A DNA stretch of 64,000 nucleotides from Escherichia coli (GTDB lineage Bacteria; Pseudomonadota; Gammaproteobacteria; Enterobacterales; Enterobacteriaceae). Positions within the stretch are counted from its first letter, which is position 1; every line of letters begins with the position of its first letter. The notes beneath the pieces are model-generated. The model was not told the DNA's origin and made no database searches. It saw only the letters and a program-made list of their open reading frames with translations. The position numbers and the translations under genes are program-made. The stretch lies in the NCBI RefSeq assembly GCF_003334385.1, contig NZ_QOWN01000005.1. The stretch is one strand, 5' to 3'. This document shows positions 28,427 to 29,196 of this stretch, one piece after another.

Positions 28427-29122
28427 ATGTTAGAAGATCTCAAACGCCAGGTATTAGAAGCCAACCTGGCGCTGCCAAAACACAACCTGGTCACGCTCAC
28501 ATGGGGCAACGTCAGCGCCGTTGATCGCGAGCGCGGCGTCTTTGTGATCAAACCTTCCGGCGTCGATTACAGCGTCATGACCGCTGACGATATGGTCGTG
28601 GTTAGCATCGAAACCGGTGAAGTGGTTGAAGGTACGAAAAAGCCCTCCTCCGACACGCCAACTCACCGGCTGCTCTATCAGGCATTCCCCTCCATTGGCG
28701 GCATTGTGCATACGCACTCGCGCCACGCCACCATCTGGGCGCAGGCGGGTCAGTCGATTCCAGCAACCGGCACCACCCACGCCGACTATTTCTACGGCAC
28801 CATTCCCTGCACCCGCAAAATGACCGACGCAGAAATCAACGGCGAATATGAGTGGGAAACCGGTAACGTCATCGTAGAAACCTTTGAAAAACAGGGTATC
28901 GATGCAGCGCAAATGCCCGGCGTTCTGGTCCATTCCCACGGCCCGTTTGCATGGGGCAAAAATGCCGAAGATGCGGTGCATAACGCCATCGTGCTGGAAG
29001 AGGTCGCTTATATGGGGATATTCTGCCGTCAGTTAGCGCCGCAGTTACCGGATATGCAGCAAACGCTGCTGGATAAACACTATCTGCGTAAGCATGGCGC
29101 GAAGGCATATTACGGGCAGTAA
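28427..29122 (+). CDS. araD: L-ribulose-5-phosphate 4-epimerase
   Basis: 231-aa [48 protein letters not shown] (class II aldolase fold). Confidence 0.95.
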
Positions 29123-29125
29123 TGA

Positions 29126-29141
29126 CTGTATAAAACCACAG
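29126..29141 (+). promoter_or_regulatory. LexA (SOS) box upstream of polB
   Basis: CTGTataaaaccACAG matches CTGT-N8-ACAG consensus; 56 nt upstream of polB GTG. Confidence 0.7.
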
Positions 29142-29153
29142 CCAATCAAACGA

Positions 29154-29182
29154 AACCAGGCTATACTCAAGCCTGGTTTTTT
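29154..29182 (+). terminator. Intrinsic terminator downstream of araD (lies inside the polB leader)
   Basis: aaccaggct-atactca-agcctggtt 9-bp stem followed by tttt(tt). Confidence 0.75.
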
Positions 29183-29196
29183 GATGGATTTTCAGC

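Follow-up and report, generated by a model that had tools for sequence, protein, structure and literature searches.

The araBAD operon and polB are neighbours in the window (the whole stretch of DNA analysed, 64 kb of Escherichia coli), with the gene order araB-araA-araD-polB-rapA on the + strand. Sequence comparison and annotation showed 100% identity of the stretch to E. coli K-12 MG1655; of 5,426 complete E. coli genomes, about 5,400 contain it. K-12 coordinates (NC_000913) were obtained as 94977 minus the window coordinate, polB lying on the K-12 minus strand. According to the list of open reading frames and the RefSeq annotation of the identical K-12 stretch, araD (28427-29122, + strand) is the last gene of araBAD, encodes L-ribulose-5-phosphate 4-epimerase, and ends with the stop codon TAA at 29120-29122. 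The coding sequence of polB (29197-31548, + strand), which is supported by the same list and by annotation, specifies DNA polymerase II (Pol II) and begins with a GTG codon that is invariant in 79 species. The gap of 74 bases between araD and polB contains the LexA (SOS) operator of polB and the terminator of araBAD.

All of these components are already on record, namely the SOS box of polB (dinA), its GTG start, its transcription start site (TSS), and the araBAD terminator; the locus is a known SOS promoter overlapping a known terminator. The identity of dinA with polB, the GTG start, and the LexA site were reportedly described by Iwasaki et al. in 1990/1991 and by Bonner et al. in 1990. What is added here is an explicit reading in which the -10 element lies in the loop of the terminator hairpin and +1 lies in its 3' arm, together with comparative evidence on which half of the hairpin serves which gene. 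Both this nested reading and its conservation can be derived directly from published data sets and public genomes.

The LexA box and the polB promoter

The LexA box CTGTATAAAACCACAG (29126-29141, no strand assigned) is a perfect CTGT-N8-ACAG with an A/T-rich spacer. It begins at the fourth nucleotide past the araD stop codon, exactly where the original prediction had placed an SOS box, and its 20-mer form is GACTGTATAAAACCACAGCC (29124-29143). Relative to the mapped polB TSS, the box spans positions -48 to -33, that is, it overlaps the polB promoter. The pattern CTGT-N8-ACAG occurs 3 times in the 64-kb window against 0.59 expected, and only the polB copy is intergenic with an A/T-rich spacer. 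For scoring, LexA matrices were derived from 15 further SOS boxes of E. coli listed in PMC3009722. The polB box received a heterology-index-like score of 12.1 (rank 5 in the window), a moderate match that lies below the heterology index of about 15 used as the membership cut-off for LexA boxes. On the log-odds matrix it scored 6.7 bits, under the best chance hits, and this low rank arises because the 15-site matrix over-penalises the unusual flank and spacer bases of the polB box. Since a sequence score alone is insufficient proof of a box, the case for function is made by its invariance at a fixed distance from the -10 element, by published UV induction, and by SOS membership. The half-sites CTGTA/CAG are invariant across 79 aligned Enterobacteriaceae. 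In a tiling array study, the polB box, as (GA)CTGTATAAAACCACAG(CC), was listed among the LexA motifs upstream of UV-induced genes (PMC3009722), and polB has been named as an SOS, LexA-regulated gene (PMC6590174). Together, these observations bear out the earlier assignment of the box as the SOS operator of polB (dinA).

Elsewhere in the window, the best LexA-like score belongs to CGCTGGGAAGATAAACAGTA (44524-44543), whose heterology-index-like score of 7.25 is better than the 12.1 of polB. By coordinate conversion, this site lies inside the 3' end of apaH, convergent with folA, and on the log-odds scale it falls within the range of chance hits in shuffles. For the polB box itself, Fernandez de Henestrosa et al. 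in 2000 are said to have given a heterology index near 12.

The -10 hexamer of polB, TATACT (29162-29167, + strand), was assigned from its invariance in 79 species and its spacing to the TSS. It is preceded by GGC, placing a G at -14 and a C at -13 (gCTATACT), and it reaches from the last pair of the stem into the loop of the hairpin, T29162 being its only paired base. T-A-T-A-x-T is invariant across 79 species, and TATAAT is found in 68 of the 79 related species as well as in many E. coli. The positions of the -10 and the TSS point to a candidate -35 element, CAGCCA (29139-29144, + strand), which matches TTGACA at 3 of 6 positions and lies 17 bp upstream of the -10. It shares bases with the right half-site of the LexA box, and apart from the CAG of that box this region is unconserved. 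CAGCCA is the best candidate, no recognisable -35 hexamer standing 16-18 bp upstream of the -10, and a consensus promoter scan called no promoter here because of the poor -35. Promoter activity at polB seems to depend on the -10 and on G-14. C at -13 followed by TATACT is a known preference of sigma-S. In the passage of PMC6590174 that cites Dapa 2017, RpoS is given as a positive regulator of polB. The C(-13)/TATACT -10 of K-12 is consistent with this reported RpoS dependence, and we infer that sigma-S may use the promoter directly.

The polB TSS was mapped to 29174 on the + strand of the window (K-12 65803, K-12 minus strand), giving a 5' UTR of 23 nt (Kim et al. 2012, PMC3415461, Table S1). 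The TSSs in that study were derived from RNA enriched for 5' triphosphates and were required in both biological replicates. Position 29174 is 7 nt downstream of the -10 hexamer and inside the 3' arm of the hairpin. For Klebsiella pneumoniae MGH78578, the same study reports a polB UTR of 24 nt and the upstream sequence CCTGTATAAAACCCCAGCGCCCCTCATGAAACCAGGCTATAATCAGGCCTG, in which the box and the hairpin recur, the loop carries TATAAT, and +1 again falls within the 3' arm, on the base equivalent to the E. coli TSS. The read counts of 2 for the E. coli TSS and 4 for the Klebsiella TSS came from uninduced cultures (PMC3415461), and such low counts are expected of a LexA-repressed gene in unstressed mid-exponential cells. 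Consistent with the mapped site, the UV tiling array placed the start of the polB transcript about 46-47 nt past the start of the 18-nt LexA motif, corresponding to about 29171-29172 (PMC3009722). Because the polB mRNA holds the 3' arm alone, it is unable to form the hairpin, and no terminator is read through or carried at its 5' end.

These data separate the parts of the original prediction. It had held that a polB promoter overlapping the LexA box must transcribe through the terminator or start inside it; polB does start inside it, at 29174, and does not transcribe through it. The hairpin had also been expected to form the extreme 5' end of the polB mRNA. The TSSs of both E. coli and K. pneumoniae, which lie in the 3' arm, contradict this, since the 5' arm is untranscribed from the polB promoter, and the main premise of the proposed coupling between araBAD read-through, SOS induction, and polB translation is refuted with it. 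A start downstream of the hairpin had been named as the refuting observation; the start is literally inside the 3' arm, and the consequence is the same. That the hairpin loop carries the polB -10 had been missed.

Kim et al. 2012 (PMC3415461) also assigned to polB a second low-count TSS at window position 29031 (K-12 65946), inside araD, with a UTR of 166 nt. It lies downstream of GATATT, a -10-like hexamer within the araD coding region, and a transcript from this site would meet the terminator.

The 23-nt 5' UTR of polB, UGGUUUUUUGAUGGAUUUUCAGC (29174-29196, + strand), is defined by the TSS map and is U-rich. When folded with the first codons, it displayed no unusual structure (z = 0.18), ruling out a structured polB 5' end. 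The GTG at 29197 stands 14 nt past the last T of the T-run that follows the hairpin. The duplex between the Shine-Dalgarno (SD) region and the anti-SD was estimated at -3.1 kcal/mol, no better than 56% of random 25-mers, so that the GTG has essentially no SD help, as had been anticipated. GGA at 29186-29188 is the sole SD-like patch in the leader, and the 79-species alignment shows conservation of a purine patch (GAG/GGA/GGG) at 8-12 nt upstream of the GTG. The weakness of the ribosome-binding site is not caused by the hairpin, because this GGA lies outside the stem in any transcript. The near-absent SD at an invariant GTG fits the low copy number of Pol II cited in PMC6590174.

The hairpin and its retention next to araD

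The hairpin lies 31 nt past the araD stop codon and is composed of the 5' arm AAACCAGGCT (29153-29162), the loop ATACTCA (29163-29169), and the 3' arm AGCCTGGTTT (29170-29179). Its stem is 10-11 bp long (10 pairs and an optional G29152-U29180), with a GC-rich core of 7 bp extended by A-U pairs, and closes a loop of 7 nt. A run of six T residues (29177-29182) overlaps the end of the 3' arm. A hairpin with a U-tract had been predicted between the LexA box and the polB GTG at 29154-29182, which is right within 1-2 nt. The hairpin alone folds with -16.2 kcal/mol, and the 96-nt region around it with -29.9 kcal/mol (z = -3.68), none of 200 shuffles being equally stable. A stable GC-rich stem-loop followed by a U-tract, with co-directional araD upstream and an integrity that tracks araD adjacency (see below), has the features of an intrinsic terminator. 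Judging from the stem, the U6, and the araD-dependent retention, it is probably, as originally predicted, a canonical intrinsic terminator positioned so as to stop transcription of araBAD. The 3' arm and the T-run (29170-29182, + strand) would form the termination module for araBAD, as suggested by folding and comparative retention. We infer that araBAD transcripts would terminate at the hairpin and U6, and their 3' ends are expected at about 29180-29184. On the DNA, the 5' arm (29153-29162, + strand) also serves as polB promoter spacer from -21 to -12, as indicated by folding and conservation, and the invariant G-15 and G-14, plus C-13, fall within it.

A consensus terminator scan flagged the hairpin on the minus strand only; the terminator on the + strand was missed because the stem was extended through the first three T residues, leaving too short a T tail. 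With the upstream A-run, the minus-strand hairpin (29153-29179) was called terminator-like, with the tail CGTTTGATTG, and could weakly stop antisense transcripts leaving polB. In a covariation test, 85.5% of cells were paired, and with an almost invariant stem the score was not above that of shuffles. A search of Rfam returned no family match for the region, and folding of the region found no alternative (antiterminator) pairing. The 3'-end tables of Adams 2021 and the SMRT-Cappable-seq tables, both from cells grown without arabinose, contain no entry at the araD/polB junction.

For comparison, 80 Enterobacteriaceae loci were collected via the PolB N-terminus, and 79 promoter regions (78 loci and the window) were aligned, with L005 (contig end) and L081 (shorter spacing) excluded. 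In addition to the LexA half-sites and the GTG, GG-TATA-T is invariant in all 79. The spacing between the box and the -10 is 20 nt in 77 of 79, and the stretch from the box to the 5' arm varies freely in sequence at constant length. The hairpin was scored as intact at a dG of -9 kcal/mol or lower, and araD was taken as adjacent when the intergenic distance was at most 215 nt. Under these definitions, the hairpin is intact in 54 of the 55 genomes in which araD is adjacent, compared with 9 of the 20 in which 300-1300 bp are inserted, 11 of these having lost it (Fisher p = 3.6e-7, uncorrected for phylogeny). In L077, one of the 9 intact inserted cases, the inserted DNA consists of repeats only.

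Hairpin loss is seen with at least 4 different insertion types. Salmonella and Citrobacter sedlakii carry a minus-strand ORF; Phytobacter, Kosakonia, and Superficieibacter carry an ElyC-like ORF on the + strand; in Pseudocitrobacter the insert is a + strand ORF of 170 aa, and one MAG has an insert of 318 nt. Lineages without the hairpin match the consensus to 97% in the -10 and to 86% in the 5' arm, against 49% in the 3' arm, and in the hairpin-less genomes araD has a different hairpin immediately past its stop codon. The tracking of hairpin retention with araD adjacency indicates that the 3' arm and T-tract are kept as a terminator serving the upstream operon. Their loss while the polB signals persist shows that the hairpin is dispensable for polB, and its absence from several lineages rules it out as an obligatory element of the polB promoter. 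We conclude from the aligned sequences that the 5' arm and loop are probably constrained as polB promoter DNA.

The 5' arm AAACCAGG(C/T) (29153-29161, alignment columns 33-42) is 86% conserved, compared with 36% for the adjoining 12 nt upstream. The conservation of AAACCAGG, which is strong for a spacer, is likely due to its promoter position from -21 to -13, in which G-15 and G-14 are invariant. C-13 tends to turn to T upon hairpin loss.

The sole genome with adjacent araD and a degraded hairpin is that of Pluralibacter gergoviae (L074, 1407-1492), in which CATTCGGGTTATACTCACTTCCTG folds with -2.4 kcal/mol in a gap of 81 nt; the LexA box, the -10, and the GTG are all intact there. Some Pseudocitrobacter and Phytobacter genomes with an inserted co-directional gene are also without the hairpin. 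These cases indicate that an upstream gene does not always require the hairpin.

DNA has been inserted repeatedly at the araD-polB junction in Enterobacteriaceae (L006-L047, L066, L078, L081), and all inserts lie upstream of the LexA box. They include a minus-strand ORF of about 130-160 aa with no family assigned in Citrobacter and Salmonella, an ElyC/DUF218-like ORF of 207-216 aa in several genera, a membrane-like ORF of 170 aa in Pseudocitrobacter, and an ORF of 372 aa in Siccibacter. In eight Klebsiella/Raoultella loci (L051, L052, L055, L058, L062, L067, L075, L077), GC-rich REP-like repeats stand between the araD stop codon and the LexA box. These carry gtagcccggataagg...ccgggat motifs in one to several copies and bring the intergenic region to 156-352 nt, with the box/hairpin module undisturbed.

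Two loci differ in the placement of the box. In Siccibacter turicensis (L081, about 1425-1500), the LexA box CTGTATATAAAATCAG is 10 nt from the -10 (TATACT) versus the usual 20, one helical turn closer, and the hairpin has a shortened stem (CCAGC/GCTGG) without a T-tract. In E. coli Z1323HEC0462 (NZ_CP148331.1; L082, 3541-4255), the LexA box (...cagccaatcaaa) and the hairpin/-10 (acgaaaccaggctataat...) are separated by an inserted IS200C element whose tnpA lies on the minus strand. With the SOS operator displaced by about 700 bp from the core promoter, polB in this strain may be free of LexA control.

Proposed superposition of a terminator and a promoter on the same 30 bp

We propose, with a probability of roughly 85%, that two ordinary and known signals are superimposed on the same 30 bp, the RNA terminator of araBAD and the DNA promoter of polB. 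In RNA made from PBAD, 29153-29182 would fold into the GC-rich hairpin followed by U6, ending araBAD transcripts about 60 nt past the araD stop codon. On the DNA, the same bases would act as the polB core promoter, with the 5' arm as spacer, the loop as -10, and the 3' arm providing +1 (29174). RNA polymerase would use the loop-borne -10 together with the poor -35 and start at 29174, and the polB mRNA would begin UGGUUUUUUG..., with an unstructured, U-rich leader of 23 nt and no hairpin. LexA bound at -48 to -33 would cover the weak -35 region and repress initiation, presumably by -35 occlusion. RecA-stimulated cleavage of LexA would relieve the repression, and the C(-13)/TATACT -10 would fit a contribution of RpoS. 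The GTG start and the near-absent SD would keep Pol II output low.

Two readings would assign the hairpin to polB. In one of them, a promoter overlapping the LexA box, for example with TATAAA (29129-29134) as its -10, starts upstream of the hairpin, and the terminator becomes a polB 5' leader that acts as an attenuator or 5' stabiliser and masks the ribosome-binding site. The -10-like TATAAA is indeed present inside the box and a strong hairpin lies close to the GTG, but the TSSs given in PMC3415461 are 29174 and 29031, with none near 29141, and Klebsiella polB likewise starts in the 3' arm. Moreover, the loop carries TATAAT/TATACT in each of the 79 species, at a spacing that suits the mapped +1, the polB promoter elements have been kept through at least 4 losses of the 3' arm and T-tract, and neither antiterminator pairing nor an Rfam family was found. 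We regard an upstream start as very improbable, and a leader attenuator is ruled out by the TSS in the 3' arm and the loss of the hairpin in several lineages. In the other, the inverted repeat works primarily at the DNA level in the polB promoter, as a palindrome bound by a protein or as a cruciform, rather than as an RNA terminator. Such a role might account for the 86% conservation of the 5' arm AAACCAGG without its 3' partner, which implies a constraint independent of RNA pairing. However, a palindrome needs both halves, whereas the 3' half decays freely (49%) while the polB signals stay intact; the conservation of the 5' half is more simply explained by its promoter position from -21 to -13, and a T-run right behind the stem is a feature of terminators and not of palindromes. 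A DNA-level palindrome is therefore hard to credit.

Two further possibilities concern transcription from PBAD. Read-through coupling, an addition to the main model and not a replacement, holds that a meaningful share of the very strong PBAD transcription escapes the terminator and adds LexA-independent Pol II synthesis on arabinose. The genes are co-directional, the terminator, 14 nt before the GTG, is the only barrier between them, and a TSS inside araD (29031) has been assigned to polB (PMC3415461). In several genera with an inserted co-directional gene, no terminator is detectable before polB, which suggests that read-through into polB is tolerated. Against this, the hairpin and U6 have the canonical features of a strong terminator, and the terminator is kept exactly when araD is adjacent, which argues that insulation rather than coupling is under selection. 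A literature search found no report of arabinose-induced polB or of arabinose read-through into polB, and we consider such coupling unlikely. Polymerases from PBAD might also cross the LexA box and the polB promoter and end about 8 nt past +1, thereby occluding the promoter or evicting LexA. The geometry allows for this, with the termination point downstream of the polB +1 and the box 4 nt past the araD stop codon, but such a layout is general wherever a promoter closely follows a terminator, and the comparative data do not require interference, which we judge quite unlikely.

It is similarly improbable that the superposition is itself functional, in the sense that growth on arabinose modulates Pol II through LexA eviction or promoter occlusion, or that the U-run confers slippage or UTP sensitivity. 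Given the 5' sequence (U)GGUUUUUUG of polB transcripts, RNA polymerase could slip on the U-run during initiation, which would make initiation UTP-sensitive. The pyrBI, codBA, and upp promoters are UTP-sensitive promoters with reiterative transcription. Like them, polB has a T6 in its initially transcribed region, at +4 to +9 if counted from T29174 or +3 to +8 from G29175. Unlike them, the T-run is absent in most of the hairpin-less lineages, Salmonella alone keeping T6, and this loss suggests that the T-run of polB is explained by the terminator. We know of no evidence of stuttering or pyrimidine control at polB. An effect of arabinose or UTP, if true, would make a DNA-damage polymerase responsive to the carbon or nucleotide status of the cell.

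With regard to other known systems, the operator and promoter are those of E. coli polB (dinA) itself, at the same locus and with the same sequence, without any difference. The araBAD hairpin resembles a canonical Rho-independent terminator in having U6, in standing at the end of its operon, and in being retained when that operon is adjacent; it differs in that the -10 and the start site of the gene that follows are embedded in its loop and 3' arm. With the terminators and attenuators of 5' leaders it shares a hairpin and U-tract immediately upstream of a start codon. Unlike in those systems, the polB transcript does not contain both arms, no alternative structure exists, and the hairpin is dispensable; an attenuator is conserved with the gene it regulates, and here 11 of the 20 genomes with araD separated from polB have lost the 3' arm and T-tract but kept the polB signals. 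The hairpin is not a member of that class.

The ara locus is among the most frequently engineered sites of E. coli. Published constructs carry deletions or PBAD-driven insertions "between araC and polB" or "between polB and yabI", and one published deletion primer ends exactly on the LexA box. With the operator 4 nt past the araD stop codon and the terminator forming the polB core promoter, ara constructs can unintentionally alter the regulation of Pol II or its insulation from PBAD. In BW25113, annotation places the intact module behind a 720-nt araD-like ORF, 300 bp from araC, contradicting an ara deletion in this strain that removes nearly all of araD. Biologically, the arrangement carries little weight in itself. 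It is a clean and conserved example of an RNA-level terminator and a DNA-level promoter on shared bases, and it illustrates that a hairpin beside a start codon need not belong to the mRNA of that gene.
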